Source: Deltaproteobacteria bacterium (GTDB taxonomy: Bacteria; Desulfobacterota; Desulfobaccia; Desulfobaccales; 0-14-0-80-60-11). From it: 55,178 nt of DNA. Position 1 is the first letter of the stretch. Every line of letters starts with the position of its first letter. Positions 22,370 through 44,792 of the stretch are shown here, in pieces. Where the stretch lies: positions 1 to 55,178 of the forward strand of contig VGSW01000003.1 in the NCBI GenBank assembly GCA_016874915.1. Direction: 5' to 3'. The notes beneath the pieces were generated by a model. It saw only the letters and a list, made by a program, of their open reading frames with translations, was not told the origin of the DNA and made no database searches. A program made the translations under genes and the position numbers.

Positions 22370-22898
22370 TAAACTTGACCTATACTTGTCAGCAACACAA
22401 AGCTCCTATGCCCATAGTGATGCGTTGATTAACGTCATTATCGGGCCGGCAGGGGAAGGCAAGACTTATGCCTCGGTAGGGGCGATGATTATTAGCGCGC
22501 AGCGTAACAAGAGGCCGGTGCTTTGGGCTATTATTCGCGATACCCATACTAACATAAAGAGATCCACGGTCCGTTCCATTAATAAAATCTTCAGAAAGAC
22601 CTCTTCCCTGGTTTCCTGGCGGGACGATTACCGGCAACTCACCATTCATTGCAACCCCAAGGTGGAGGTCGATCTTTTCGGGATAGACGATCCCGGGACG
22701 CTGAACCGGCTGCAAGGGACGGAGTACGACGGCATCTGGCTGGAGGAACCCGCGGCGATGCTGGAGCGGGCCAACAGCGGCCTTTCGGAAGAGGTGTTCA
22801 ACGACGCCCTGCTACGCTGCGTCCGGGCCCAGGCGGAACATTCCCGGCTCTCGGGTTGTGCCATTGCACTTTCGGGTGAGATGCTTAGTTTTTGGTAA
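22362..22898 (+). pseudogene. Phage terminase large subunit, N-terminal ATPase fragment
   Basis: Walker A IIGPAGEGKT, WAIIRDT..NIKRST, FGIDD...[13 protein letters not shown] (Walker B); ends before the nuclease domain. Confidence 0.7.
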
Positions 22899-22914
22899 AA
22901 CTCCCCAAGGTTCG

Positions 22915-25500
22915 ATGATGAAATCTCGCGATTCGGACAGAGTTCAAGATCCGGTGTGCGGCATGCAGGTCAAACCTGACAGCCCCCATCGCACCGTCTT
23001 CCAAGGCCGTGCGTATGCCTTCTGCAGCCCCCATTGCCTTGACCGGTTCCAGAAGGAGCCGGAACGCTACCTTGGCGTGGGAGGCTCCGAGGAACCTGAA
23101 GTTGCGGCCCCGAAAGAGCAGCCGGAGACCCCCACAGAGTACCTGACCTGCCCCCTGCACTCCGAAGTAATGGAGCCGGCGCCCACCTGTCCCAAATGCG
23201 GGATGTTTTTGGAGAGGCCGACAGAGCCACAGTTGGAGGAGAAAAAGCCCGCTAAAGCGCCTGAGGTCCCAGGCGCTTATTACACCTGCCCCATGGACCC
23301 CGAAATTCGGGAGTCTCAGCCCGGTTCCTGCCCCAAGTGCGGCATGGCTTTGGAGACGGCCGCCCCGCCCGCTCCCTTGACGCGCACCGAATGGACCTGC
23401 CCCATGCACCCGGAAATCGTCAGCGATGCGCCGGGGAACTGTCCCAAGTGCGGCATGGCGCTGGAGCCTCGCACCGTGGCCTTGGAAGAGGAAGAGAACC
23501 CGGAGCTTCGAGACATGCGGCGGCGGTTCTGGGTGGCCCTGGCTCTCACCCTCCCCGTGGTCATTATCGCCATGGGCCACCTTATCCCCGGCCATCCCCT
23601 GGAGAAACTGGCCTCCCTTGAGGCATTGGGGTGGCTGGAGCTGGCCCTGGCGACACCGGCGGTATTGTGGGGCGGCTGGCCCTTCTTCGTTCGGGGCGTC
23701 CAATCGGTGATCAATCGTAGCCTGAACATGTTCACCCTCATCGGGCTGGGGGTGGCGGTGGCTTATGTCTATAGCGTCATCGCCCAGGCCTTTCCCGGCA
23801 TCTTCCCTGCCTCCTTTCGCGGGCCGGAAGGGAGAGTGGGGGTATATTTCGAGGCCGCGGCGGTCATCGTCACCCTGGTGCTCCTGGGCCAGGTGCTGGA
23901 GTTGAAGGCCCGGGGGCAGACCAGCGCCGCCATCAAAGCCCTGTTAGGGCTCGCCCCCAAGACTGCCTGCCGACTCCGGGAAGATGGGACCGAGGAAGAC
24001 ACACCCTTAGAACAGGTCCAGGTGGGTGACCGCCTCAGGGTGCGGCCCGGCGAAAAGGTGCCGGTGGACGGCATAGTCCTGGAAGGCAAGAGCGCGGTGG
24101 ACGAATCCATGGTCACCGGGGAGCCTATCCCGGTGGAGAAGGAGCCGGGCAGCCGGGTGATCGGGGCCACGGTGAACGGCACCGGGTCCCTGGTGATGCG
24201 GGCCGAGCGGGTGGGGGCGGAAACGCTCCTGGCCCAGATCGTCCGGATGGTGGCCGAGGCCCAACGTAGCCGGGCCCCCATCCAGAAACTGGCCGATGTG
24301 GTGGCGGCCTACTTCGTCCCCGCCGTGGTAGTGATCGCAGTTCTCACCTTCATTATCTGGACCCTGGTGGGGCCGGAGCCGCGGCTGGCCCACGCCCTGA
24401 TCAATGCCGTGGCCGTGCTCATCATCGCCTGCCCCTGCGCCCTGGGGCTGGCCACCCCCATGTCCATCATGGTGGCCACCGGCAAGGGCGCCACTGTGGG
24501 CGTCCTGTTCAAAAACGCCGAGGCCATCGAGGTCATGCGCCGGGTGGACACCCTGGTGGTGGATAAAACCGGCACCCTTACCGAGGGCAAACCCAAGCTG
24601 GTGACGGTCAGATCGGCCAACGGCCTGGATGAAGCGACCTTGCTCCGCCTGGCGGCCAGCCTGGAGCGGGGGAGCGAACATCCCTTGGCTGGGGCCATCG
24701 TCAAGGGAGCCCAGGAACGGGGCACTGATCTGGTCGAGGCGAAATCCTTCGAATACCTCACCGGCAAAGGGGTTACGGGGCAGGTGGACGGACGCCGGGT
24801 GGCTTTAGGAAATCGCCGCTTGCTGGAAGAGTTGGGAATCGATGCCGGGAAGTTATCCGCCCAGGCGGACGCCCTGCGGAAAGAGGGCCAGACCGTGATG
24901 CTGGTGGCCGTGGAAGGCCGGGCCGTCGGTTTGGTAGGGGTGGCGGACCCCATCAAGGAGACCACCCCGGCGGCCATTCAGCGGCTCCACGAAGAGGGCC
25001 TCCGCATCGTCATGCTCACCGGGGACAACCGCACCACCGCGGAGGCCGTGGCCCACAGACTGGACCTGGATGAAGTGATCCCGGAAGTCCTCCCGGACCA
25101 GAAGGCCGAAAAAGTCAAGGAATTGCAGAGAGAAGGCCGCTTCGTGGCCATGGCCGGCGACGGCATCAACGACGCCCCGGCCCTGGCCCAAGCCCAGGTG
25201 GGCGTCGCCATGGGCACCGGCACGGACGTGGCCATGGAGAGCGCCGGGGTGACCCTGGTCAAGGGTGATCTCCGGGGCATCGTCCGGGCCCGGCGGCTGA
25301 GCCGCGCCACCATGCGGAACATCAAGCAAAACCTGTTTTTTGCTTTTATCTATAACGCTCTGGGTATTCCCATTGCGGCAGGCATCCTCTACCCCCATTT
25401 CGGCATTTTGCTGAGTCCCATCATCGCGGCCGCGGCTATGAGCTTCAGTTCCATATCGGTGGTGGGCAACGCGCTCCGGCTGCGGAGATTATCCCTGTAA
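22915..25500 (+). CDS. copA: Cu+/Ag+-exporting P1B-1 ATPase with YHS and three heavy-metal-binding domains
   Basis: DPVCGM...FCS..C (YHS), three TCP(M/L)(H/D)..E...CPKCGM units, [29 protein letters not shown]. Confidence 0.93.
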
Positions 25501-26071: not shown

Positions 26072-26647
26072 ATGGTATGGCCGGCAAAATTCCTGGCAGG
26101 TGGAGGTCTTATTCTACTTATTCTCTCCTTCCCTATGCCGATACAAGCGGCCATCGTCGAATATGAACTCACCATCGCCCTACAGGAGGTCAACATCACG
26201 GGCAAGCCGACTTGGGGCATGACTATCAATGGAGGTATTCCAGGTCCGACCTTGCGCTTTAAAGAAGGCGATACCGCCCGTATCCGCGTTCATAACCGCA
26301 TGAAGGAGGACACCTCCATTCACTGGCATGGGGTACTCGTTCCGCCAAATATGGATGGCGTTCCTTACGTGAGCTTTCCCCCCATTGAGCCGGGCGCCAC
26401 CTTTACCTATGAATTTCCCATCCGCCAAACCGGAACTTACTGGTATCACTCCCACACCAGGCTGCAGGAGCAACGCGGCCATAAAGGGGACATCGTCATC
26501 GAGCCCGTGGGAAGTACACGCCGGCGTGACTTACCTGATATCGAAAAATACTTCACTAATCGGGCAATGGCACTCCGATTATGGATGGGGTGGCGGGCTG
26601 CGAATCCGGTTTTGATCCAGATAATTCCTAACCCTCACAAACCCTGA
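26072..26647 (+). pseudogene. Truncated multicopper oxidase (cupredoxin domain 1 only)
   Basis: Signal peptide, INGGIPGPTL, SIHWHG, DGVP, GTYWYHSH; homology stops near IVIEP and the C-terminal copper ligands are absent. Confidence 0.8.
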
Positions 26648-26722: not shown

Positions 26723-27787
26723 ATGATTATTGACCCTATTTGTAAAATAGAAGTCAAAGAAGATGAAGCCCTAAAAGCCGAATGTGACGGCTTGATTTAC
26801 TATTTTTGCTCGGAAGGTTGCCGGGATAAATTCCTCAAAGAGCGAACCTTCGCCCGCACCGCCTACGACCTGATCATCATCGGCGGCGGGCCCGCGGGCC
26901 TGACCGCGGCGGTCTATGCCGCCACCTTGAAGATGGAGGCCCTGCTGGTGGCCAAGGACCTGGGCGGGCAGGCGGTGGACAGCACCAAGATCGAAAATTA
27001 CCTGGGCTTCGATTTCATCACCGGTCCGGAGCTCATCGACAAATTCAAGCACCACCTCTTTGATTCCCACTATATTGACCACCTGATGAGCGAAGTGGAA
27101 AAGATTGAACCCGATGACGGCGGGTTTAAGGTCACCACTTCGGAGTTAACCACCTACACCGCCAAGACCCTCATCATCGCCACCGGCATGACCCGGAGGC
27201 GGCTTGGAGTTCCCGGAGAAGAGAAGTTCCTGAGGAAAGGCATCTTTTACGGCAACGTCCAGGAGCTTTCCTTCGTAGAGGGGGAAGACGCGGCGGTCAT
27301 CGGCGGGGGCAACTCGGCCCTCCAGGTCGTGGAGAACCTGCACACGGTGGCCCGGAATATCCACCTTATTTCCACCTCGGAACTGACCGCGGACCCGGCG
27401 GTGGTGGAACGGGTCGGTTGTCTTGCAAATTTGCATACTTATCTTGGCTATAAGGTTCTCGAATTCACCGGCGACCGGACCCTGGGCGGAGTCACCATCA
27501 GGAAAAAGGCCGGGGCCGAAACCCTGAGCCTGCCGGTAAAGGGCGCGTTCATCGCCGTGGGCCTGGAACCCAACTCCTCCCTGGCGGCCCCGCTGGTGCA
27601 ACTCAATGAGCGGCGGGAGATCATGATCCACCCAGACTGCTCCACTTTTCACCCGGGGATTTTCGCCGCGGGAGACGTGACCGATGCCTTCGGCAAGAGG
27701 ATCATCATCGCCTCGGGGGAAGGGGCCAAGGCCGCTCTGGCGGCCAGGCAATATCTGTTGAACCTGCGGAAAGCGGTGTGCGCTTAG
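26723..27787 (+). CDS. YHS domain plus thioredoxin-reductase-fold flavoprotein lacking the CxxC
   Basis: DPIC...YYFCSEGC, GGGPAGLTAA, IENYLG, IIATG, GGGNSA, FAAGDV; GIFYGNVQE stands in place of GVSYCxxCD. Confidence 0.85.
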   Translation: MIIDPICKIEVKEDEALKAECDGLIYYFCSEGCRDKFLKERTFARTAYDLIIIGGGPAGLTAAVYAATLKMEALLVAKDLGGQAVDSTKIENYLGFDFITGPELIDKFKHHLFDSHYIDHLMSEVEKIEPDDGGFKVTTSELTTYTAKTLIIATGMTRRRLGVPGEEKFLRKGIFYGNVQELSFVEGEDAAVIGGGNSALQVVENLHTVARNIHLISTSELTADPAVVERVGCLANLHTYLGYKVLEFTGDRTLGGVTIRKKAGAETLSLPVKGAFIAVGLEPNSSLAAPLVQLNERREIMIHPDCSTFHPGIFAAGDVTDAFGKRIIIASGEGAKAALAARQYLLNLRKAVCA

Positions 27788-34030: not shown

Positions 34031-35356
34031 ATGGAGTGCAAGCGGCGTGCTTCCGGAGTGGCATTGCTTTTTTTACTCGGCTTGTTTGGGGTCTTAAGTC
34101 CGGTGCATTCGCTTTGGGCTCAGAGCAACGCGAACCTGCCGGCTGATTTACAATCCCTGATTGCCGAAGCCCTGAAGGCGAACCCGGAGATCAGGCAAAT
34201 GGCCGAGCTCAGGAATGCCTCCCGAGAGACCATCCGCTCCGCCGGGGCCCTGGACGACCCCGAAATCTCCTTCACCTTGAAAGATATTCCCACGGACACT
34301 TGGGGCTTCAACCGGGAGAGCATGACTCAGAAAATGCTCGAGGCGTCTCAAAAGCTCCCCCTTCCCGGCAAAAGGCGCCTGCGGTCGGAAGCTGCCGCCG
34401 AGCAGAACCGGTCGGATGATTTCTCCTACAAGGACAAGGTCAACGAAATCAGGGCCAAGATGGGGATGGCCTATTGGGGATTGTCATTGGCCCATGTCGC
34501 TTTCGATATCACCGAAAAAAACAAAAACCTCTGGGAACAAACGGTCAAAGTGACGGAAACCAGGTACCGCGTGGGCCAGGGGATGCAGGCCGACGTAATT
34601 CAGGCCCAGGTGGAACTGGGCAACTACCTGGATCGCCTGTTGCAATGGCGGCAGCGCCAGGAGTCCTTCAGGGCGGATATAAACGCCTTGCGTTCCCAGC
34701 CCCCAAATGCACCCGTCGTCCAGCCGCAACCCTTGAGGCCCCGTCCTTTCCCGATCAAATTAGAGCATCTGCTGGCTATGGCCGAAGCCCGTCCCCAACT
34801 CCAGGCCCTGAAAGCCCTGGTGGCCAAACAGGAGAAAATGGTGGACCTGGCCAGAAAAGATTACTATCCGGATGCCAAAATATCCTTAGCCTACGGCCTT
34901 CGGGACACCCTGGCTCCCCCCGTAAATCAGAAACAGGCGGATATGTTCACCTCCTCGGTTATGTTCAATGTCCCTATTTGGTGGGAGTCCAAGATTAAAC
35001 CTCGCATCAGGGAAGAACAGGCCCGGACCGGCGCGGCCCGGGAAGCCCATCAATCCGCCTGGAATCAACTGAGCGCAATGATTAAGGATCGATATGCCAA
35101 ATTGCAGCGCCTGGCTCAACAGATAAATCTGTACGATCATGACATTGTCCCCCAGGCCAGGCAGGCGGTGGAGTCCTCTCTGGCCTCCTACCAAGTGGGG
35201 GCCCTGGCTTTCGCCCAACTCTATCAGAACCAGATCGCGGTTTATAATGCCGAACTGATGCTCCAGGAATACTTGCGGGATTTCGAAGAGAACTGGGCCG
35301 AATTGGAATGGCTGGTGGGGGAAGAGTTGCCTCGCCGGCCGGAGGTAAGGAAATGA
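34031..35356 (+). CDS. TolC/CusC-family outer membrane efflux protein
   Basis: EALKANPEI, SQKLPLPGKRRL, YRVG, DYYPD, YQVG; heads the RND operon. Confidence 0.88.
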   Translation: MECKRRASGVALLFLLGLFGVLSPVHSLWAQSNANLPADLQSLIAEALKANPEIRQMAELRNASRETIRSAGALDDPEISFTLKDIPTDTWGFNRESMTQKMLEASQKLPLPGKRRLRSEAAAEQNRSDDFSYKDKVNEIRAKMGMAYWGLSLAHVAFDITEKNKNLWEQTVKVTETRYRVGQGMQADVIQAQVELGNYLDRLLQWRQRQESFRADINALRSQPPNAPVVQPQPLRPRPFPIKLEHLLAMAEARPQLQALKALVAKQEKMVDLARKDYYPDAKISLAYGLRDTLAPPVNQKQADMFTSSVMFNVPIWWESKIKPRIREEQARTGAAREAHQSAWNQLSAMIKDRYAKLQRLAQQINLYDHDIVPQARQAVESSLASYQVGALAFAQLYQNQIAVYNAELMLQEYLRDFEENWAELEWLVGEELPRRPEVRK

Positions 35357-36696
35357 ACGTCCGCCGCTTTTTGCCAGGTTTGGTTCTAGGCCTGATCATC
35401 TTGCTGATCGCCGGAGGCCTTGTCTACTGGCGGGGTTACCGCCTGATGCAGCACGCCGCCGCCCCCGGTCCTCCGGCTCCGGCTCCTGAAGCCAAGGAGG
35501 GCCGGAAAATCAAGTATTGGGTCTCCCCCATGGATCCCAAAATTATCTCGGATAAGCCAGGCAAAGACCCTATGGGCATGGATTTCAAGCCGGTTTATGA
35601 AGAGGTGGGACCAGCCATGGCGCCCGGTACCATCGCGGTGGACCCCAACACCCTCCAGTCCATCGGGGTCCGCACCGCCAAGGTGGAAGTTCGCCCCCTG
35701 TCCCGGGTAATCCGGGCGGTGGGCAAAGTGGTATATGACGAGCGCCAGCTTTCCGTGGTCAACACCAAGGTGGACGGCTGGGTAACCCGCCTCTTTATCA
35801 AGATCACCGGAGAGCCGGTGCGCAAGGGGCAGAAGCTCGTCAGCATCTATAGCCGGGAGCTGGTGCCGGCCCAACGGGAGTATTTACTCGCTTTGAGAAA
35901 TCTCAAAACCGTGGGCAAGAGTTCGTTTCCGGAAATGGCTGAAGGGGCCCGTCGCCTGGCGGAGGCTTCTCGCGTGCGCCTGGAGTATTTCGACATCACA
36001 CCTTCCCAGATCGCCGAACTGGAGAAAACCGGCCAAGTGAAGAAGGAACTCACCTTAACTTCGCCAGTACACGGCATTGTCACCGAGCGGATGGTGACCG
36101 AGGGCCAGTTCGTCATGGCCGGCATGACCCTGCTGAAGGTGGCGGACCTCTCCACTGTCTGGGTGGAGGCGGATATTTATCAATATGAGCTTCCCTGGGT
36201 GGAGGTGGGTCAGCGGGCCGAGATGACCTTGAATTATATTCCGGGAGAAACGTTTCACGGCACCATCGAATATCTTTACCCCTATCTAAAGGGGATGACC
36301 CGCACCGCCAAAGTGCGCCTGAAATTCCCCAATCCCCGGATCAAGTTCAAACCGGAGATGTTCGCCCAGGTGGAGATCAAGTCCCCTCTGAAGCCTATGG
36401 TGGTCGCGGTGCCCACGGAGGCCGTGCTGGACACCGGGGAAAAGCAGCATGTCTTCGTGGCCTTGGGACAGGGCCGGTTCCAGCCCCGGGAAGTGAAGCT
36501 GGGAGTCCAGGGAACTGATCGGCTGGTGCAGGTACTCTCCGGACTAAAAGAGGGCGAAGAAGTGGTCACGTCGGCCCATTTCCTGCTGGATTCGGAATCC
36601 CGCTTCCGGGAGGCCGCGGCCAAATTCCTGGGAGCCCAAGAGCCGGGAAAGGAGGGGGCGCCACCGGCGGCGCCCCCGGCGCACTTGAAGCACTAA
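35353..36696 (+). CDS. cusB: CusB-family periplasmic adaptor
   Basis: YWVSPMDP..PGKDPMGMD, SPVHG, ADLSTVWVEA, KPEMF, FLLDSES. Confidence 0.88.
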   Translation: MNVRRFLPGLVLGLIILLIAGGLVYWRGYRLMQHAAAPGPPAPAPEAKEGRKIKYWVSPMDPKIISDKPGKDPMGMDFKPVYEEVGPAMAPGTIAVDPNTLQSIGVRTAKVEVRPLSRVIRAVGKVVYDERQLSVVNTKVDGWVTRLFIKITGEPVRKGQKLVSIYSRELVPAQREYLLALRNLKTVGKSSFPEMAEGARRLAEASRVRLEYFDITPSQIAELEKTGQVKKELTLTSPVHGIVTERMVTEGQFVMAGMTLLKVADLSTVWVEADIYQYELPWVEVGQRAEMTLNYIPGETFHGTIEYLYPYLKGMTRTAKVRLKFPNPRIKFKPEMFAQVEIKSPLKPMVVAVPTEAVLDTGEKQHVFVALGQGRFQPREVKLGVQGTDRLVQVLSGLKEGEEVVTSAHFLLDSESRFREAAAKFLGAQEPGKEGAPPAAPPAHLKH

Positions 36697-36745: not shown

Positions 36746-39700
36746 ATGATTGAAAAACTTATCGAGGCCTGCGTTCGCAATCGCTTTTTGGTCATACTCG
36801 TCTGGCTCCTGATCGCCGCCTGGGGGATTTATACCACCTATAACATGCCCATCGACGCCATTCCCGACATTTCCGACGTCCAGGTCATCATCCTCACTGA
36901 GTACCCCGGCCAGGCCCCCGAGGTGGTGGAGGCCCAGGTAACCTATCCCCTGACCACCACCATGCTGGCCGTACCCAACCGGAAGGTGGTGCGGGGTTTT
37001 TCCCAGTTCGGCTTTTCCATGGTGTACATCATCTTCGAGGACGGGACCGACATCTACTGGGCCCGTTCCCGGGTCCTGGAATACCTGAACTACATCCGAG
37101 AAAAACTGCCTCCCGGCGTAAGTCCCGCCCTGGGGCCGGACGCCACCGGCGTGGGCTGGGTCTATGAATACACCCTGGAAGATACCACCGGCCGCCACGA
37201 TCTCAGCCAGCTCCGCAGCATCCAGGACTGGTTTTTGCGGTATCAAATACAGTCGCTGGAGGGGGTGGCCGAGGTCGCCAGCGTGGGCGGGTTTGTCAAG
37301 CAGTACCAGGTGAAGGTGGACCCTAACACCCTGGCTGCTTACAACATTCCTCTTTCAAAAGTGCGGACGGCCATCCAGATGTCCAACCAGGACGAGGGGG
37401 GCCGGTCCATCGAGAAGGCCGAAACCGAATACATCGTGGTGGGCCGGGGTTATATCAAGACCGTAGCCGACGTGGAAAACATCGTGGTGGGCACCGACGG
37501 CGAAGGGACTCCCATCCTGATTAAAGATATTGGGGCAGTGGAGCTCGGACCTGAACTGCGGCGGGGCGTGGCGGAGGCCAACGGCACCGGCGAAGTGGTG
37601 GGCGCCATCGTGGTCATGCGCTTCGGGCAAAATGCCCGGGCGGTCATTGACCGGGTGAAGGCGAAGTTGGCCGAGCTTCAAAAGAGTCTGCCTCCGGGGG
37701 TGCGCATCGTCACCGCCTATGACCGTGCCTCTCTCATTCAAAAATGCATCGATACCCTGAAGGAAGCGCTTACCGAAGAAACCATCATCGTGGGCCTGGT
37801 CTGCCTGGTTTTTCTGATGCACCTCAGGAGCGCCCTGGTGGCCATCATCAGCCTGCCCCTGGCGGTTCTGGTGTCTTTTATTCTCCAGTATCAATTCAAT
37901 ATCACCGCCAATCTTTTAAGTTTATCCGGAATCGCCCTGGCCCTGGGAGACATCACCGACGCCGCGGTGGTCATGGTGGAAAACGCCCACAAGCGCCTGG
38001 AAAAGGCCGCTCCCGGTGAAGAACGGGAATCCCTGGTCCTGGAGGCCGCCAAGGAGGTGGGTCCCTCCCTCTTCTTCTCCCTCCTGGTCATCACGGTGTC
38101 TTTTTTGCCCATCTTCGCCCTGACCGGGGAGAGCGGCAGGCTTTTCAAGCCCCTGGCCTACACCAAGACTTTTGCCATGGCCGGCGCCTCCATCCTGGCC
38201 GTTACCCTCACCCCGATTCTGATGGTCTTTCTGATCAAAGGGAAAATCCCTTCCGAGGCCCGAAACCCGGTAAACCGCTTTACCATGTTCCTTTACCGGC
38301 CGTTTTTGCGCCTGACCCTGCACTTCCCCAAAGCGTCCATCCTGGCGGCGGCCCTGATCCTGGCGGCCACTGTTTATCCCGCCCTGAAGCTGGGAAGCGA
38401 GTTCATGCCGCCCCTGGATGAGGGCGACCTGCTTTACATGCCCACCACCATGCCGGGCATTTCCATCACCGAAGCCAAGACCCTCCTGCAACAAACCGAC
38501 CGGATTCTGCGCACCTTTCCGGAAGTGGAATACGTCTTCGGTAAGGCGGGCCGGGCCGAGACCGCCACCGACCCGGCGCCTTTGAGCATGATTGAAACCA
38601 TCATCCGCCTCAAAGACCGCAAGGACTGGCGCCCGGGATATGACACCCCGCGCCTGATCCAGGAGATGGACGCGGCCATCAAGTTTCCCGGGGTGGCCAA
38701 CGCCTTCGTCTTTCCCATCCGCACCCGCATCGACATGCTGTCCACCGGCATCAAGACCCCGGTGGGGCTGAAAATTTTGGGACCCGATCTCAATGTCCTT
38801 AACCGTCTGGCGGAGGAAGCCGAGCCCATATTTAAAGAAGTCCCGAACACGGTCAGCGTCTTCTCCCAGCGGGTCACCGGCGGCTACTACCTGAACTTTG
38901 ACATTAACCGAAAGGAGGCCGCCCGGTACGGCCTCACCGTGGGTGACATTCAAGAAGTCATCGCCACCGCCCTGGGAGGCCGGAAAATTACCCAAACCGT
39001 GGAGGGGCTGGAGCGCTATCCCGTGAACCTCCGATATTTTCAGGACTACCGGCTGGATTTGCCGGAATTGCGCCGCATCCTCATACCCACCATGAACGGG
39101 GCCCAGATACCCATGGAGCAGGTGGCCGATATCCGGATCCAGATGGGCCCCCCGGAAATCACCAGCGAGGACGCCCGCCTGGCCGCCTGGATTTTCGTGG
39201 ATATCCGGGACATCGACGTGGGCAGTTACGTGCAAAAAGCGAAAGAGGCCATCCAGACCAAGTTGAAGCTGCCCCCGGGGTACACCCTGATCTGGAGCGG
39301 CCAGTTCGAATATATGGAGGAAGCCCGCAAAAGACTGCAAGTAGTGATTCCCGTCACCCTGGTCCTGGTCGTCATCCTGGTTTACCTGAATACCGGTTCG
39401 GTGAAGGAAACAGGGTTCATCCTCTTCACCTTGCCCTTTTCCTTTGTGAGCGCCATCTGGGGGCTATATTTATTGAAATACAATCTAAGCGTGGCGGTAA
39501 TGGTGGGATTTATCGCCCTGGGGGGCTTGGCCGCGGAAACGGGGGCCATCATGCTCTTGTTCCTGAACCTGTCATATGAGGAGGCCCAAAAAACCCGCCG
39601 GACCATGACCTGGGAGGACTTGCGGGAGTCGGTGATGAACGGGGCGGTGCTGCGCCTGCGCCCCCTGCTCATGACCGCCCTGGCCAACCTGTTCGGGTTG

Positions 39701-39856
39701 CTGCCCATCATGTGGAGCACCGGGGTGGGGGCCGAGGTGGCCAAGCGCATCGCCGCCCCCCTGGTAATCGGGGTAATCAGCGCCCTGGTTCTGGTTCTGT
39801 TTATTTACCCGTCCATTTATCTCTTGTGGAAGTGGCACGCGGAGGTGAAACGCTGA
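36746..39856 (+). CDS. cusA: CusA heavy-metal RND transporter
   Basis: DAIPDISDVQV, WARSRVLEYL, GPDATGVGWV, GSEFMPPLDEGDLLYMP, DPAPLSMIET, RIDMLSTG. Confidence 0.93.
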   Translation: MIEKLIEACVRNRFLVILVWLLIAAWGIYTTYNMPIDAIPDISDVQVIILTEYPGQAPEVVEAQVTYPLTTTMLAVPNRKVVRGFSQFGFSMVYIIFEDGTDIYWARSRVLEYLNYIREKLPPGVSPALGPDATGVGWVYEYTLEDTTGRHDLSQLRSIQDWFLRYQIQSLEGVAEVASVGGFVKQYQVKVDPNTLAAYNIPLSKVRTAIQMSNQDEGGRSIEKAETEYIVVGRGYIKTVADVENIVVGTDGEGTPILIKDIGAVELGPELRRGVAEANGTGEVVGAIVVMRFGQNARAVIDRVKAKLAELQKSLPPGVRIVTAYDRASLIQKCIDTLKEALTEETIIVGLVCLVFLMHLRSALVAIISLPLAVLVSFILQYQFNITANLLSLSGIALALGDITDAAVVMVENAHKRLEKAAPGEERESLVLEAAKEVGPSLFFSLLVITVSFLPIFALTGESGRLFKPLAYTKTFAMAGASILAVTLTPILMVFLIKGKIPSEARNPVNRFTMFLYRPFLRLTLHFPKASILAAALILAATVYPALKLGSEFMPPLDEGDLLYMPTTMPGISITEAKTLLQQTDRILRTFPEVEYVFGKAGRAETATDPAPLSMIETIIRLKDRKDWRPGYDTPRLIQEMDAAIKFPGVANAFVFPIRTRIDMLSTGIKTPVGLKILGPDLNVLNRLAEEAEPIFKEVPNTVSVFSQRVTGGYYLNFDINRKEAARYGLTVGDIQEVIATALGGRKITQTVEGLERYPVNLRYFQDYRLDLPELRRILIPTMNGAQIPMEQVADIRIQMGPPEITSEDARLAAWIFVDIRDIDVGSYVQKAKEAIQTKLKLPPGYTLIWSGQFEYMEEARKRLQVVIPVTLVLVVILVYLNTGSVKETGFILFTLPFSFVSAIWGLYLLKYNLSVAVMVGFIALGGLAAETGAIMLLFLNLSYEEAQKTRRTMTWEDLRESVMNGAVLRLRPLLMTALANLFGLLPIMWSTGVGAEVAKRIAAPLVIGVISALVLVLFIYPSIYLLWKWHAEVKR

Positions 39857-39947
39857 TTGGAGATGAGGAAGAGAAACAACGGCAATATTGTCCCGTGTTG
39901 TTCGGAAACCATCAAGCTGGAATTTTTATTTTCGGGGAGGACTGAAA

Positions 39948-40283
39948 GTGAGGACCATTGCTTCAAAGGCTCTGATCTTTTTCCTGGGTCTCACCTTTTT
40001 CTGGGGCGTCGCAGTTCAAGGAGCTTTCGGTAGTGGGCAGAATCTTTATAAGGACAAGTGCGCGATTTGCCACGGGATAAACGGAGATGGAAAGGGACCA
40101 GGCGCCGGCTCTTTCACCCCCCGGCCCACCGATTTCACCACGCCCAGGTTCTGGGAAGGCAACTATGAAAGAAACATCGCCAATTCCATTAAAAAGGGCT
40201 TTCGGGAAATGCCTGCCATTCCCATGAGCGACGCGGAAATCAAAGCTGTTGTCGACTACATGGTCAAATCATTCAAGAAATGA
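39948..40283 (+). CDS. Small periplasmic monoheme cytochrome c
   Basis: GGAGG RBS and GTG start, signal peptide, CAICHG, distal MPA. Confidence 0.85.
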   Translation: MRTIASKALIFFLGLTFFWGVAVQGAFGSGQNLYKDKCAICHGINGDGKGPGAGSFTPRPTDFTTPRFWEGNYERNIANSIKKGFREMPAIPMSDAEIKAVVDYMVKSFKK

Positions 40284-40361
40284 CAAAAAGCCCCGTTGTT
40301 TGGCAGGGACAAGGAAAAGCTTTTTCCTCAGCTCGGTAGGTCTTTTAGTATGGAGGAGAAA

Positions 40362-41708
40362 ATGTCCAGACGGGGATTAGGAACCGCGGTCATAGTCCTG
40401 GGTCTGGCTGGTATGGCGCTCTTACTGGCTTCAACCAAGGCCCGGGCGGTGCCCAGTTTCGGCCGCCAGTCGGGGATGGGCTGCAACGCCTGCCACACCG
40501 TTTTCCCGGAATTGACCCCCTTCGGCCGCGCCTTCAAGTTGACCGGATACGTTTTTAGCAAAAAGACTGAACCCTACGAATTCCCTCCACCCGTCTCCGC
40601 CGGGGGCATCGTTTCTTTCACCAATACCGGAAAGGCGCAGCCTCCTGGGGTGGCCCCCTTCGAATCCCGGGGCAACGACAACGTGAACGTCCCCCAGGTG
40701 ATCAACGCTTATTATGCCGGAAAGCTCTTCTCCAGAGTCGGCACCTTCTTTCAGGGCACCTATGACGGGGTAAGCGAAAAATTCTTGGTGGATCACGTGG
40801 ACATCCGCTATGCCAACTATGCCAGAATCGGCAGGGGCAGCCTGATTTACGGCTTAACCATTAATAATAACCCCACAGTCCAGGATGTCTGGAACAGCAC
40901 CCCGGGATTCAGTTTCCCCTATGTCTCCTCCAGCGTTGTCCCCGAGCCCATCGCGGCCCCGAAAATCCTCGACGCTCTGGCGCTGCAGGTTGGCGGTCTG
41001 GGCCTTTACGGCTTCTGGAACAACCTCCTATATACCGAAGTGGCCCTGTACCGCACCTCCCGGAACGGGCCGACCCAATGGTTGGGCGCGGGCACCCAGA
41101 TCGAAAATCTGGCGGATGGGGTCATCCCTTACTGGCGGGTGGCCTTGCAACGCACCTGGAAACAGCACTCATTTTCTCTGGGGACTTACGGCCTGGTGGC
41201 CCGCATCTTCCCCGAGGGCCAGACCCGGGGGCTAAGCGACCGGTTTACGGATATCGGCGTGGATGCCCAATACCAATACATCGGCAGCAAGCACATCTTC
41301 ACCGCCCAGGCCACCTGGATTCACGAGGACCAGAACCGGGACGGCAGTTTCGCCCGGGGAGAAGCGGCCAGGCGGTCCGGAAGCCTGGACACCTTTAAGA
41401 TAAACGGCAATTACTATTACCGGAGCCGGTTCGGCACGGTGGGCGGAACCCTGGCGTTCTTTTCCACCACGGGAAGCAGAGACCCGGAACTTTATGCCCC
41501 GGAACCGGCGGAAGGCAGCCGCACAGGACGTCCGGATACCAACGGGTTCATCATCGAGGCCAATTATTTGCCCTGGAATTACAGCAAAATTTCCGTCCAG
41601 TACACCATCTTCACCAAGTTCAACGGCGCTCGCACCAACTATGACGGCTTGGGCAGGAAGGCCTCCGATAATAATACCCTCTTCTTGAACGTATGGCTTA
41701 TCTTTTAA
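40362..41708 (+). CDS. Cyc2-like fused monoheme cytochrome-porin
   Basis: Signal peptide, then AVPSFGRQSGMGCNACHTVFPELTPFGRAFKLTGY, a beta-barrel body and a terminal aromatic residue (VWLIF). Confidence 0.85.
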   Translation: MSRRGLGTAVIVLGLAGMALLLASTKARAVPSFGRQSGMGCNACHTVFPELTPFGRAFKLTGYVFSKKTEPYEFPPPVSAGGIVSFTNTGKAQPPGVAPFESRGNDNVNVPQVINAYYAGKLFSRVGTFFQGTYDGVSEKFLVDHVDIRYANYARIGRGSLIYGLTINNNPTVQDVWNSTPGFSFPYVSSSVVPEPIAAPKILDALALQVGGLGLYGFWNNLLYTEVALYRTSRNGPTQWLGAGTQIENLADGVIPYWRVALQRTWKQHSFSLGTYGLVARIFPEGQTRGLSDRFTDIGVDAQYQYIGSKHIFTAQATWIHEDQNRDGSFARGEAARRSGSLDTFKINGNYYYRSRFGTVGGTLAFFSTTGSRDPELYAPEPAEGSRTGRPDTNGFIIEANYLPWNYSKISVQYTIFTKFNGARTNYDGLGRKASDNNTLFLNVWLIF

Positions 41709-41781
41709 GAAGCGAGGGCTGCTTCGGCTTTAAGGACGCACCGGCTTTACGCATGTCGCCGAACTTCAGCAGAGGTCGGGA

Positions 41782-42501
41782 ATGTTCGATTTCTTTTATA
41801 ATTTTCTCCAAAAAATCGGCTATACCCATCCGCCTCATGCGCCCCTGACCCACATGCCCAACGGCCTGGTGGTGGGAGCATTCCTTTTGGGTCTCATCGC
41901 CCTCCTGGTCAGGCGATCCAACCTGGCAATGTCGGCCCGCCATTGTCTGGTGCTCGCCCTTATTTTTCTATTCCCCACGGTATTGCTGGGCTATATGGAT
42001 TGGCAGCGCTTTTTCGCCGGAGCCTGGCTGTTTCCCATCAAGATTAAAATTGCCTTGTCCGGGGTGCTGCTCGTCCTGTTGGCCATTGGCGTCGCTTTAG
42101 AATATCTGGAGGTGTTAGGACCGAAGTCCAGGCTTCCAATTTATAGCTTTTGTGCCCTTACGGTCATCGCGTTGGGGTATTATGGCGGTCAACTAGTTCT
42201 TGGCGGCAAGTGTCCGGAGCCGCCTCCGGAGCTTTCGGGAGGCGCAAAGTTTTACGAGACCTACTGCGGTGGCTGTCATCCCAATGGAGGAAATATCTTT
42301 AACCCCAAATTGCCGGTGAGAGGGGCCCCCCAGCTTAAGGATTTTGATATTTTTCTTACCTTTAATCGCCATCCCCAACGGCCTGACGGCTCACCTGGAG
42401 TCATGCCCGCCTTTCCGCCGGAAAAACTCTCCGATCAGCAGATGCTGGAACTTTATCATTACATTTTCCATGCCTTTGTAATGACGGAAAGAAAAGAATG
42501 A
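41782..42501 (+). CDS. Inner-membrane DUF2231-like protein fused to a monoheme cytochrome c
   Basis: HPPHAPLTHMP, four TM segments, GYYGGQLV, then CGGCH...MPAF. Confidence 0.82.
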   Translation: MFDFFYNFLQKIGYTHPPHAPLTHMPNGLVVGAFLLGLIALLVRRSNLAMSARHCLVLALIFLFPTVLLGYMDWQRFFAGAWLFPIKIKIALSGVLLVLLAIGVALEYLEVLGPKSRLPIYSFCALTVIALGYYGGQLVLGGKCPEPPPELSGGAKFYETYCGGCHPNGGNIFNPKLPVRGAPQLKDFDIFLTFNRHPQRPDGSPGVMPAFPPEKLSDQQMLELYHYIFHAFVMTERKE

Positions 42502-42640
42502 CCAGGCATACAGCCTGACCGATTGATGACCGCCGGCCAGTGGTTATATTTAAAGAAACATTGGATTTTCAAATGATTCGGTCAGATTGTCTAGGTTAAT
42601 CCTTATGAGAATGGTTAAATTGCCACAGGAGGGAATCCAA

Positions 42641-43042
42641 ATGCGGGGGCTTATTATTTTCGCGATTATGGCTTTGGTCATGGCGCCGGGGATGCCAAGA
42701 GAAGGTTCAGGCCAGCACATGCACCCAGGCACCCACGTTGCCGGCCAGATGGTGCACAGCATGGGCATGATGTCCGAAATAATGAAGGATATAAATCAGA
42801 TGACGAGCGAAGGACGGATGACCCCTGAACAGCAGCGAGAGATCTCCGACATGATGAACCAAATGGGTAAAATGATGCGGCAAATGACCACCCCTCAGCC
42901 TAGACAGATGGAAGAGGAGCAGCATCGCCAGCTTACAAAGATGCAGAAGCGCGTCAAGGCCATGAAAAAACAAGTGGAAAAGCAAAAGAAAAGGCCGGCT
43001 CAGCCGGGGCCGAAGCCGCAGCCGGAGGAGCATAAGCACTAG
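42641..43042 (+). CDS. Exported Met/His-rich helical protein, paralog of 28151
   Basis: GGAGG RBS, signal peptide, MTPEQQ...MMNQMGKMMRQM, ends EHKH. Confidence 0.8.
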   Translation: MRGLIIFAIMALVMAPGMPREGSGQHMHPGTHVAGQMVHSMGMMSEIMKDINQMTSEGRMTPEQQREISDMMNQMGKMMRQMTTPQPRQMEEEQHRQLTKMQKRVKAMKKQVEKQKKRPAQPGPKPQPEEHKH

Positions 43043-43096
43043 AAAAGACCCCCGGTGAATTGACCATGCCGGATTTAATTGCATAAGGAACCTTTT

Positions 43097-43711
43097 ATGC
43101 AGAAAAGCAAGATAATCTGGTTCACCCTGGGCGGGATGTTACTGGGCTACCTCCTTATCCATCCCTTTGCCATGTTGGCCAACACCCTTGGCCCCCGCTT
43201 GCCTCACTTTCCCATGGAATTCCCCTTCTGGGGCCACCATCTGCGAATCTCCTTCGGTCCGGAGATGCTGACCATGGGCATGGCCTTTGCCTTTATGGGC
43301 GGGGTGGCGGGCTTCTCCCTGGGGATTTGGTACCTCCAGAAAGAGCGGCTGACTGCGGAGAGGCTGGAATCCCAGCGACGCCGGGTAGCCCTGGAGACTT
43401 TGCAGGAATTGATGGTCACCCTGGCGCATCACGTACGGAACGCCAATGTGGTGATCGGCGGCTTCAGCGGCCGCCTCATCAAGCAAGCCCCCGATCCGAA
43501 AGCCCAACGCCAGCTGGAAATGATCCAGCAAGCCTCCCGGGAAATCGACGCGGTGATCGCCTCCCTGCAAAGTTTGACGGAAATCGAGCATACCCGGTAT
43601 ATCGGCGCCTGGGAAACGAAGATGATCGACTTGAAAAAAGAGCTGGAAGTCAGGCTGAAAGCTGCGGAAGAGATAAAAGAAACCTTGGATGGAAGCGATG
43701 AACGGCATTGA
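43097..43711 (+). CDS. Two-TM protein with a HisKA-like dimerisation domain and no ATPase domain
   Basis: TM1 ..IHPFAM, TM2, H-box-like VTLAHHVRNANVVIGGF. Confidence 0.7.
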   Translation: MQKSKIIWFTLGGMLLGYLLIHPFAMLANTLGPRLPHFPMEFPFWGHHLRISFGPEMLTMGMAFAFMGGVAGFSLGIWYLQKERLTAERLESQRRRVALETLQELMVTLAHHVRNANVVIGGFSGRLIKQAPDPKAQRQLEMIQQASREIDAVIASLQSLTEIEHTRYIGAWETKMIDLKKELEVRLKAAEEIKETLDGSDERH

Positions 43712-44792
43712 AAAACCGTGGGGCCCTGAACTTCCTGACTCGGATTCACCGGAACGCCAGCGCCTGGATCTACCCAGGCCGCCATCTACCCCCAGGTTTT
43801 ATCCCGTCCTGGGATTGCTCCTCGGAGCGGCGGCCAGCATATTTATAGGCCATCCCTTGGCCATGGTAGCCCTTAATATTCAGGAATACATTAACAACCA
43901 GTCTCCCCTGGAACTAACTCACCGGATTTTACACAGTTACTCGATCCGGATGTGGCCTATGATTTCCCTGTATTTCCTTTCCGGGGCCGTTTTCGGGGCA
44001 GGCTTCGGCAAAATTTATCAAAAGTTGGTGGAAAACCGTCTCCACATCGAGCACCTCTACCAGGAATTCGAATTGCAGGTGGCGAGCCTCAGGCATCATT
44101 ATAAAAATATGACCATTGGCATCCAGGGATTTTCTCAACGCATCAAACGGAAGGTGACCGATCTCACCAGAGATGTAAATCAATGCCATGGACAAGAGTG
44201 CCCCATAGATAATTGCTTTTGTCGGAATCTCCCTGCCTTGGAACGGGATGTGAACACCATGGTGGACACCACCCAACGCCTCAATGAAACCTTGGAAAAG
44301 GAGCTAATATTATTAAAAGTGTTGACTGGCAGCACTTTGGTTCCCCAGCCTCGGGATTTTTATCCCGTTCTTGCGGGGGCTATACAAGATCTGCTGGGGT
44401 TACGTTTTCGAGATAAATTGATTGAGGTTGAGATTAACGGCAAGCCTTATGCCAAGTTCAGCGGCTCTTTAATTTTTAACTTCGATTTGGCGACCATGCA
44501 GGTGATCGTGGAAAATATCTTGAGCAACGCCATGAAGTTTGGAGACCAGGTTCGAGTGGTAACGAAGGAAGTTAATAATAGAGTGGCGATCTCCATCATG
44601 GATAACGGTCCCGGCTTTGAAGTGAGCGAACTGAAAAAACAACTGCTTTCCCTGCGGGAGCGCCGGGAAGCGAAAAGCACCAAGCTGGGATTGAAAGTCA
44701 GCCTTCACCTTCTGGAGAAATGCGGCGGCGCTCTGTACGTCTGGAGTAAACCGGGGATCGGCTCGGCCTTTACCCTGGAGTTTCCCAAATAG
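43689..44792 (+). CDS. Atypical membrane sensor histidine kinase
   Basis: TM1 ..GHPLAM, ASLRHHYKN, ENILSNAMKF, DNGPGF, degenerate G2 (STKLGL), SKPGIGSAF. Confidence 0.8.
   Translation: MEAMNGIEKPWGPELPDSDSPERQRLDLPRPPSTPRFYPVLGLLLGAAASIFIGHPLAMVALNIQEYINNQSPLELTHRILHSYSIRMWPMISLYFLSGAVFGAGFGKIYQKLVENRLHIEHLYQEFELQVASLRHHYKNMTIGIQGFSQRIKRKVTDLTRDVNQCHGQECPIDNCFCRNLPALERDVNTMVDTTQRLNETLEKELILLKVLTGSTLVPQPRDFYPVLAGAIQDLLGLRFRDKLIEVEINGKPYAKFSGSLIFNFDLATMQVIVENILSNAMKFGDQVRVVTKEVNNRVAISIMDNGPGFEVSELKKQLLSLRERREAKSTKLGLKVSLHLLEKCGGALYVWSKPGIGSAFTLEFPK

Follow-up and report, generated by a model that had tools for sequence, protein, structure and literature searches.

Results

Three haem-protein genes directly behind cusCBA

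We analysed a 55,178-nt stretch of DNA (the window) from a Deltaproteobacteria bacterium, covering positions 1–55,178 of contig VGSW01000003.1 (assembly GCA_016874915.1). The window carries a predicted CusCBA-type efflux set of the resistance-nodulation-division (RND) kind, with pump, adaptor, and outer-membrane factor in one operon. Directly 3' of cusA (36746–39856) lie three open reading frames (ORFs) on the plus strand, which encode a small cytochrome c (cyt c), a barrel protein, and a protein joining a DUF2231-type domain to a cytochrome c domain (DUF2231-cyt c). The initial annotation had described a trio placed directly after cusA that supplies one haem protein per envelope compartment. 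The ORF positions, the CAICH, CNACH, and CGGCH motifs, and the junction-spanning contigs all agree with this placement, and the trio indeed comprises an outer-membrane barrel, a soluble periplasmic cyt c, and an inner-membrane DUF2231-cyt c. The genes are as follows:

34031–35356, plus strand: cusC-type outer-membrane factor (Pfam OEP, E 2e-36)
35308–36696, plus strand: cusB-type periplasmic adaptor (HlyD_D23, E 3.7e-80; weak HMBD match)
36746–39856, plus strand: cusA/czcA-type heavy-metal RND pump (TIGR00914, 1202 bits; cut-off 701)
39948–40283, plus strand: periplasmic monohaem cyt c (CAICH; Cytochrome_CBB3, E 7.5e-13)
40362–41708, plus strand: Cyc2-like fused cytochrome-porin of 448 amino acids (aa), with CNACH near the N-terminus and a 16-strand barrel
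41782–42501, plus strand: DUF2231 four-helix membrane domain plus monohaem cyt c (DUF2231, 24.3 bits; CGGCH)

The ORF of the small cyt c, a predicted class-I monohaem cytochrome c, opens at 39888; its likely start is the GTG at 39948, which lies 6 nt after GGGGAGGA and is preceded by GGAGG. The barrel ORF opens at 40296, and the database gene call P0001 is the 448-aa form that begins at Met23 (40362). The 91-nt gap between cusA and the cyt c gene contains no terminator-like or promoter-like site on the plus strand. Contigs of three sequencing runs span the cusA/cyt c junction. One of them, from run X7 (piece 39542–40571), carries no flag as a potential source of the window sequence, which shows that the two genes truly adjoin and that no assembly artefact is involved. 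Within the pump operon, cusC has orthologues of 57–71% identity in four genomes of the same family and of 69% at the paralogous host locus G000:C20, the cusB product scores 187.5 bits against the CusB model NF007303 (below its cut-off of 390), and the window cusA is one of two cusA/czcA-type genes in the host genome.

The barrel protein is related to Cyc2

The N-terminal stretch of the barrel protein reads AVPSFGRQSGMGCNACHTVFPELTPFGRAFKLTGY, identical to the sequence quoted in the initial annotation. A single CNACH stands at residue 41 of the 448-aa form, behind a hydrophobic helix (residues 3–23) and A-R-A. No match to the protein was found in Pfam or NCBIfam. An AlphaFold2 model built on a 102-sequence alignment reached a pLDDT of 94.4, and DSSP assigned 16 strands to it after a short helical haem segment. 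The top structural match of the model is OprP (2o4v; Z 22.1, rmsd 3.4 over 321 residues), in a tie with Omp-Pst1; Foldseek returned 16-strand general porins at E about 1e-8, and the nearest Pfam-bearing clusters in the ESM Atlas carry Porin_O_P.

As set out by Keffer et al. 2021, a Cyc2 protein has a signal peptide and one CXXCH, preceded by AXPXFAR[Q/K][T/Y] and followed by PXL, is no shorter than 365 aa, and contains a 16-strand OprO/OprP-like porin; PXFAR[QK][TY] served there as the sequence screen (PMC8406198). We retrieved 270 homologues of the barrel protein and counted motifs in the 254 with a single N-terminal CXXCH. The literal PXFAR[QK][TY] occurs in 155 of these 254 relatives, invariably three residues ahead of the Cys, and PXL follows the CXXCH at +4 in 216. 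The window protein, at 448 aa well past the length threshold, has the PXL (CNACH-TVF-PEL) and carries AVPSFGRQS upstream, with G in place of A and S in place of T/Y, a variant unique among the 254; it would thus drop out of a tree built with the published screen. Its relatives P0003, P0005, and P0006, which read AVPSFARQT, are 62–64% identical to it at 91–96% query coverage (E 1e-186 to 1e-194). We use the label Cyc2-like because the protein's own motif departs from the literal screen while relatives of such identity pass it. Analysis of the sequences thus places the protein as a homologue of the Cyc2 family with a variant motif, and the kinship with Cyc2 proposed in the initial annotation is borne out by homology, barrel fold, and the PXL motif.

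The family is large, with 5661 matches at E≤1e-3 among 8000 scored candidates and 3268 representative clusters matching the barrel protein at the same threshold. It is nearly all unnamed: the names among the matches listed are 'hypothetical protein' or 'cytochrome C', and named carriers include Robiginitomaculum, Steroidobacteraceae, Rhizomicrobium, and metagenome-assembled genomes (MAGs) of Nitrospirae. The barrel proteins of loci L042, L043, L051, and L082 contain a Met/His-rich loop of the HMxxH type (EHMQEHMxMDGE...) at residues about 290–330. This loop occurs in a sub-branch of the clade to which the window belongs and is absent from the window protein.

The inner-membrane partner combines a DUF2231-type domain with a cytochrome c domain

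The cyt c part of DUF2231-cyt c matches Cytochrome_CBB3 (E 3.2e-7) and carries CGGCH. The DUF2231 match of the window protein, at 24.3–25.4 bits, lies below the gathering cut-off of 26.4, and the DUF2231 protein of locus L111 and a paralogue in the host genome (G000:C287) exceed the cut-off of Pfam DUF2231 (PF09990). Alignment of 17 homologues revealed invariant H16, H19, H24, C55, D73, W74, and K89, with an H-P-x-H...H motif common to 17/17. The AlphaFold2 model (pLDDT 79.5) consists of four long helices followed by the cyt c domain. Judged by eye from the positive-inside rule, the His-rich N-terminus and the cyt c domain would both face the periplasm.

Foldseek found no match to the model at E≤0.001. 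Its rows for CcmC, STEAP, bd oxidase, and b561 were weak (E 0.17–1.3). With VIA-align, designed four-helix bundles and CcmF scored highest, but no Z exceeded 11.0, which is below the meaningful level for helical bundles, and no fold was assigned on these grounds. Among the texts searched, the term DUF2231 appeared in a single, unrelated paper.

When 401 genomes of the phylum were searched with the DUF2231 alignment, 74 gave matches at E≤1e-8, and full-length DUF2231-cyt c fusions, as read from the match list, occur in about eleven of the 74. For ten such genes, no Cyc2-like gene is present within some 6–7 kb, and three of the ten have informative neighbours. In G394 (L127:3696–7480), a decahaem MtrA-like gene, an MtrB_PioB porin gene (E 1e-93), and DUF2231-cyt c are consecutive on one strand; in G372 (L135), DUF2231-cyt c lies beside an MtrA-like/MtrB_PioB pair and a small cyt c in a divergent arrangement; and in G312, it is upstream of a qNOR-like gene. 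The only other DUF2231 protein of the host, G000:C287 (L119:517–1905; 462 aa), combines Flavin_Reduct, Cyt-b5, and DUF2231 domains. DUF2231 thus recurs in combination with redox domains, and it keeps company with two kinds of outer-membrane conduit that are unrelated to each other. These associations suggest that DUF2231 is a membrane redox module, and DUF2231-cyt c probably forms the inner-membrane end of outer-membrane electron conduits, a role not described before, because it accompanies MtrA/MtrB-type conduits (G394, G372) as well.

Conservation and spread of the three genes

We compared the window with 87 other loci carrying 624,870 bp of flank; 11 came from genomes and 80 from metagenomes, some of them partial and some duplicated. 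The metagenomes were scanned with a 41-sequence alignment. A quick IQ-TREE maximum-likelihood tree was built from 81 full-length barrel proteins, with L105 and L106 as long branches; proteins shorter than 380 aa (L006, L009, L010, L026, L075, L082, L095, and similar) were excluded from the tree, and L011 and L012 (24% identity) from the neighbourhood counts. The window falls within a 32-row clade (SH-aLRT 99), in which L034 and L002 are its nearest relatives.

Among the 31 other loci of this clade, two of which have almost no flank, genes within 2.5 kb of the barrel gene were counted. A homologue of the small cyt c stands beside the barrel gene in 24 of the 31 and DUF2231-cyt c in 19; both are found together in 16, and the trio is a conserved cassette. 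Elsewhere in the family, a dihaem c4-type cytochrome gene is directly 3' of the barrel gene in 23 loci, and in L058 and L060 the barrel gene is followed by genes for another kind of membrane-anchored monohaem protein and for a cytochrome c of 98 aa. This regular company of periplasmic c-type cytochromes is the main support for a role in electron transfer. One recurrent '258-aa' neighbour (cluster 4, 13 loci) was discarded because it proved to be an artefact, an ORF read antisense to the dihaem cytochrome gene.

Across the phylum, barrel matches at E≤1e-10 were found in 11 of the 401 genomes; apart from the host, close homologues that are both intact and full-length are confined to G124 and G260. 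Taken with the patchy spread in the phylum, lateral mobility of the cassette is a fairly probable part of the interpretation developed below. In G373, which belongs to the same family as the host (L008 = L026), a frame break and in-frame stops (one TGA, two TAG) interrupt the Cyc2-like gene, with a cyt c gene upstream and Rieske/cytochrome b genes downstream; this is probably a decaying copy.

The genes that flank the cassette point to a recurrent ion-homeostasis island context. N-type ATPase operons lie beside it, with AtpR in L047, L049, and L053 and ATP synthase genes in L006, L007, and L034; PPK2 and STAS-domain genes are also among the neighbours of the cassette in this set of loci. Rieske/cytochrome b genes are found near the barrel gene in L004, L008/L026, L010, L024, and L085, and in L040 by clustering only.

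The link to cusCBA is local

Beyond the cassette, and elsewhere in the same metal island, the window encodes the following:

42587–43042, plus strand: Met/His/Gln-rich secreted-looking protein (133 aa when counted from Met19, including 21 Met and 7 His)
43079–43711, plus strand: orf43079, a membrane protein with a histidine-kinase dimerisation-like region (weak AtoS/PhoR matches)
43689–44792, plus strand: sensor histidine kinase (HATPase_c, E 9e-14)
22858–25500, plus strand: copA-type copper P-type (P1B) ATPase (E1-E2_ATPase, two HMBD, and YHS)

The copA-type ATPase scores 617 bits against TIGR01511 (cut-off 397). The Met/His/Gln-rich protein has no Pfam match; we take its composition to be like that of periplasmic Cu(I)/Ag(I) binders. 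The island has one multicopper-oxidase gene (26072–26647, plus strand), located between copA and a YHS-fused pyridine-nucleotide disulfide oxidoreductase gene (26723–27787). Its product is cut down to 191 aa and one Cu-oxidase_3 domain (E 3e-39), and the gene is probably what is left of a longer one in a host without a detected oxidase. At position 43185, inside orf43079, one base is absent from contigs of runs X1 and X2 relative to the window, possibly an assembly or strain indel.

As a general rule, the description of the trio as appended to cusCBA did not survive the comparison. In the 32-row clade, the window alone combines the barrel gene with a nearby CusA-type pump, and L047 is the one locus where a copper P1B ATPase is close by. 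Neither kind of pump is found near the trio's closest relatives, L034 and L002; L034 has an ATP synthase gamma gene upstream, and the neighbours of L002 are housekeeping genes. Four genomes of the same family have an orthologous cusCBA (CusA 68–71% identical) and no trio.

Two further loci bear on how the arrangement may have come about. The host has a second cusCBA on contig G000:C20 (L125, 2972–12465, minus strand), whose CusA is 70% identical to that of the window; it is followed by a small Tyr/Pro/His-rich lipoprotein-like ORF and by homologues of orf43079 (63%) and of the kinase (47%). A further membrane protein with an orf43079-type N-terminal domain and a receiver-domain-like ORF are also found there. 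L034 has the trio, the Met-rich gene (L034:3275–3703, 59% identity), orf43079 (81%), and the kinase (72%), and no cus. The window arrangement thus approximates the union of the two orders. The cassette looks inserted, because the sensor genes that stand behind the second cusCBA lie beyond the cassette here. The link to cus is local to the window and is not the rule in its relatives.

Since the cassette and the Met/His-rich gene lie between cusCBA and its usual sensors, the cassette is probably co-expressed with the copper pump, which the terminator-free gap after cusA also makes plausible. One explanation, taken up from the initial annotation, would go further and regard the trio as a dedicated Cu/Ag redox accessory of CusCBA within the cus regulon. 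It would alter the redox state of copper in the periplasm or after export, either by O2-independent oxidation of Cu(I) or by reduction of Cu(II) to Cu(I) for export by Cus. This is consistent with its position inside a copper island with copA, the multicopper-oxidase fragment, and cusCBA, with the uninterrupted 91-nt gap, with the Met/His-rich protein kept behind the trio in both the window and L034, and with the recurrence of the same sensor genes behind the second cusCBA. The pump-free surroundings of L034 and L002, the count of pumps at only 2 of 32 own-clade loci, and the four same-family genomes with cusCBA alone speak against it.

A wider view of the family is less one-sided. A CusA/CzcA-type pump above the TIGR00914 cut-off is present near the barrel gene in L058, L111, and L062, a copper P1B ATPase above the TIGR01511 cut-off in L047 and L077, and partial P1B genes in L078 and L005. 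Such pumps therefore flank 7 of the 87 other loci, in at least four separate clades, against 0.67 loci expected from the host density of four such pumps in 3.73 Mb (P(X≥7) = 7e-6). Counted as four clade-level events, the enrichment is weaker, with P(X≥4) of 0.005, or 0.14 at three times the host pump density. In a 4-row clade (L005, L111, L058, and L060), a pump is present in all three loci with enough upstream flank. In L111 (3341–7158), the stop of cusA overlaps the start of the next gene, whose 228-aa product is a DUF2231 protein that ends in a His-rich tail, and the Cyc2-like gene lies 2.7 kb beyond it. A wider link of the family to copper export is thus partly supported: the enrichment is suggestive but falls short of decisive.

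The recurrence of pumps in the family, the 4-row clade, the HMxxH-type loop of the barrel proteins of L042, L043, L051, and L082, and the His-tailed protein directly 3' of cusA in L111 would all suit a Cu/Ag accessory. Against this, N-type ATPase operons, H+ P-type ATPases, PPK2/STAS genes, and Rieske/cytochrome b genes are as common near the barrel gene as copper pumps, the window barrel protein has no Met/His-rich segment, and Cu(I) oxidation needs a high-potential sink while no oxidase was found in the host. On balance we regard a dedicated copper or silver accessory as possible but unlikely. The haem-gated metal channel that the initial annotation offered as an alternative found no backing in the data.

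The opposite extreme is that the neighbourhood is due to chance, the cassette having landed in a metal island by lateral transfer without any functional tie, perhaps to be poorly expressed or to decay. The patchy distribution, the broken same-family copy in G373, the wide variation of flanking genes, and the accumulation of unrelated cargo in islands are what such a history would leave. The three reading frames are nevertheless all intact, tightly spaced, and on one strand, the cassette sits at the very junction of the pump and its usual sensors, and pumps recur near the family in several clades. A purely accidental placement appears improbable to us. No paper linking Cyc2 with cus/copA or with DUF2231 was found among the top-ranked results of the literature search, and the remark in the initial annotation that no described system with this combination was known agrees with this.

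The host genome lacks a detected oxidase

The host genome is 98.5% complete with 5.15% contamination and has one copy of the barrel gene. Neither COX1, cytochrome bd, nor cytochrome b was found in it, and NarG and NapA searches gave nothing above the cut-off. DsrA (548 bits) and NrfA (491 bits) are present, the latter being the only high-potential periplasmic enzyme found, and PFOR is encoded within the window. The initial annotation had spoken of an apparent anaerobe, a description that fits the absence of detected COX1, bd, and cytochrome b together with DsrA and the PFOR of the window. The relatives of the locus belong to Thermodesulfobacteriota or 'delta proteobacterium' MAGs. Among five other trio-bearing genomes, all five have DsrA and four have COX1-family genes; in G401, which carries the second-closest homologue (L002), COX1 was not found.

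These data bear on the possibility that the barrel protein acts as a canonical Cyc2 that oxidises dissolved Fe(II) at the outer membrane, either to gain energy or so that the oxidation products stay outside the cell, with electrons passing via cyt c to a terminal reductase. The family members described as biochemically tested in the cited accounts all oxidise Fe(II) (PMC8406198; PMC7029218; PMC13741234), and Cyc2 expression has been reported in DsrAB-bearing Desulfobacterota-related MAGs from Cu/Ni tailings (PMC13594681). The strong conservation of the haem-region motifs (155/254 and 216/254), the cyc2-cyc1-like pair at 23 loci, the Rieske/cytochrome b genes beside the barrel gene in 6 loci, and the COX1-family oxidases in 4/5 of the other trio-bearing genomes are in line with such a function. 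The host argues in the other direction: neither it nor G401 yielded COX1, the host also yielded no bd, cytochrome b, NarG, or NapA, NrfA is the sole high-potential sink found, and no carbon-fixation or lithotrophy context is present near the locus. For this host, canonical Fe(II) oxidation seems to us very unlikely.

Discussion

A putative electron relay across the envelope

Cyc2 itself is already known; what the window adds is a Cyc2-like cassette that has an as yet undescribed partner in the inner membrane and that sits, through a local insertion, in a cus locus. With moderate confidence, we interpret the three genes as a laterally mobile electron-transfer cassette of the Cyc2 type. From the architecture of the products we infer a relay of three parts. 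The outer membrane would hold a 16-strand porin with one c-type haem on its N-terminal segment, a soluble monohaem cyt c would move in the periplasm between the membranes, and the inner membrane would hold a four-helix DUF2231 protein bearing its own periplasmic cyt c domain. A dissolved redox-active metal ion may enter the barrel and exchange one electron with the barrel haem; the electron would then travel via the soluble cytochrome to or from the membrane-anchored cytochrome, and the DUF2231 domain may couple the relay to the membrane or the cytoplasm.

Substrate and direction can be proposed with less assurance. Outward flow, from the membrane through cyt c to the barrel haem with reduction of Fe(III) or Cu(II) species, is a tentative possibility. 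Inward oxidation of Fe(II) or Cu(I) is rather doubtful; anoxic Cu(I) oxidation would need a sink, and the only candidate identified is nitrite via NrfA. The midpoint potential given for Cyc2PV-1 is 208 ± 20 mV (PMC8406198; PMC13741234). We lean slightly towards outward flow because no oxygen or nitrate reductase was found and because DUF2231 is elsewhere fused to cytoplasmic reductase-type domains. A bolder extension would see a haem-based, O2-independent copper redox module wired into the cus regulon, which takes the place of the multicopper oxidases of aerobes and in which DUF2231-cyt c is a terminus shared by Cyc2- and MtrAB-type conduits; this we consider highly speculative and quite improbable.

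Several points weigh against interpreting the trio as a Cyc2-type electron-transfer cassette. The window protein itself does not carry the literal PXFAR[QK][TY] of the Cyc2 screen. DUF2231-cyt c is missing next to the barrel gene in 12 of the 31 clade loci, six of which (L024, L037, L047, L049, L053, and L057) have ample flank, and pairing within the cassette is not obligatory, given the 10 full-length DUF2231-cyt c genes of the phylum that stand without a Cyc2-like neighbour. DUF2231 is a domain without a known function or a convincing match among solved structures, and its topology was argued by eye from the positive-inside rule. The tree is a quick version and not the careful search. The proposed direction rests on the absence of oxidases and on domain fusions, and NrfA could act as a sink.

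Significance

Genes of the cyc2 type are in wide use as markers of microbial iron oxidation. The results describe a large, mostly unnamed branch of the Cyc2 family in DsrA-carrying bacteria, some of them without a detected oxygen reductase, whose porin-cytochrome probably moves as a three-gene cassette with an inner-membrane partner not found in the literature searched. If DUF2231-cyt c is the membrane end of the conduit, a step so far missing from the Cyc2 pathway can be put to the test. The recurrent but minority siting beside copper pumps counsels caution against reading each cyc2 match as iron lithotrophy, and the cassette is a concrete candidate for anoxic metal redox handling.

Comparison with known systems

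The barrel protein resembles the fused cytochrome-porins of the Cyc2 family (Acidithiobacillus ferrooxidans Cyc2, Mariprofundus Cyc2PV-1, and Leptospirillum Cyt572) in its signal-peptide-like N-terminus, its single N-terminal CXXCH, the PXL four residues past the haem motif, its length of about 450 aa, and its OprP-like 16-strand barrel. It differs from them in reading AVPSFGRQS instead of AXPXFAR[QK][TY], in residing in a host without a detected oxygen reductase, and in having a monohaem cyt c and DUF2231-cyt c as partners, not Cyc1, rusticyanin, or cox products.

In the rus operon, cyc2 and cyc1 occur in that order (PMC10654088). As in that operon, the barrel gene is paired with a periplasmic c-type cytochrome gene, and in 23 loci of the family the downstream gene is of the dihaem c4 type. 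In the window clade, by contrast, the cytochrome is monohaem and encoded upstream of the barrel gene, no cupredoxin or cox genes follow, and the cassette includes an inner-membrane haem protein.

CusCFBA systems are accompanied by periplasmic Cu(I) oxidases of the multicopper type, CueO or PcoA. The window is similar in that a copper pump adjoins a periplasmic redox component and a Met-rich protein. Unlike CueO and PcoA, this putative redox component is haem-based and is predicted to span the envelope, and the island's sole multicopper-oxidase gene is the single-domain fragment of 191 aa.

The MtoAB, PioAB, and MtrAB conduits have a quinol-linked partner in the inner membrane, CymA or MtoC. 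The window cassette contains neither a decahaem cytochrome nor an MtrB_PioB porin; each of its proteins has one CXXCH, and the outer-membrane haem is fused to the porin, a 448-aa protein without a Pfam match. In overall plan the two kinds of system are alike, each with a conduit in the outer membrane, a carrier in the periplasm, and a terminus in the inner membrane, and in G394 and G372 DUF2231-cyt c accompanies conduit pairs of this very type.

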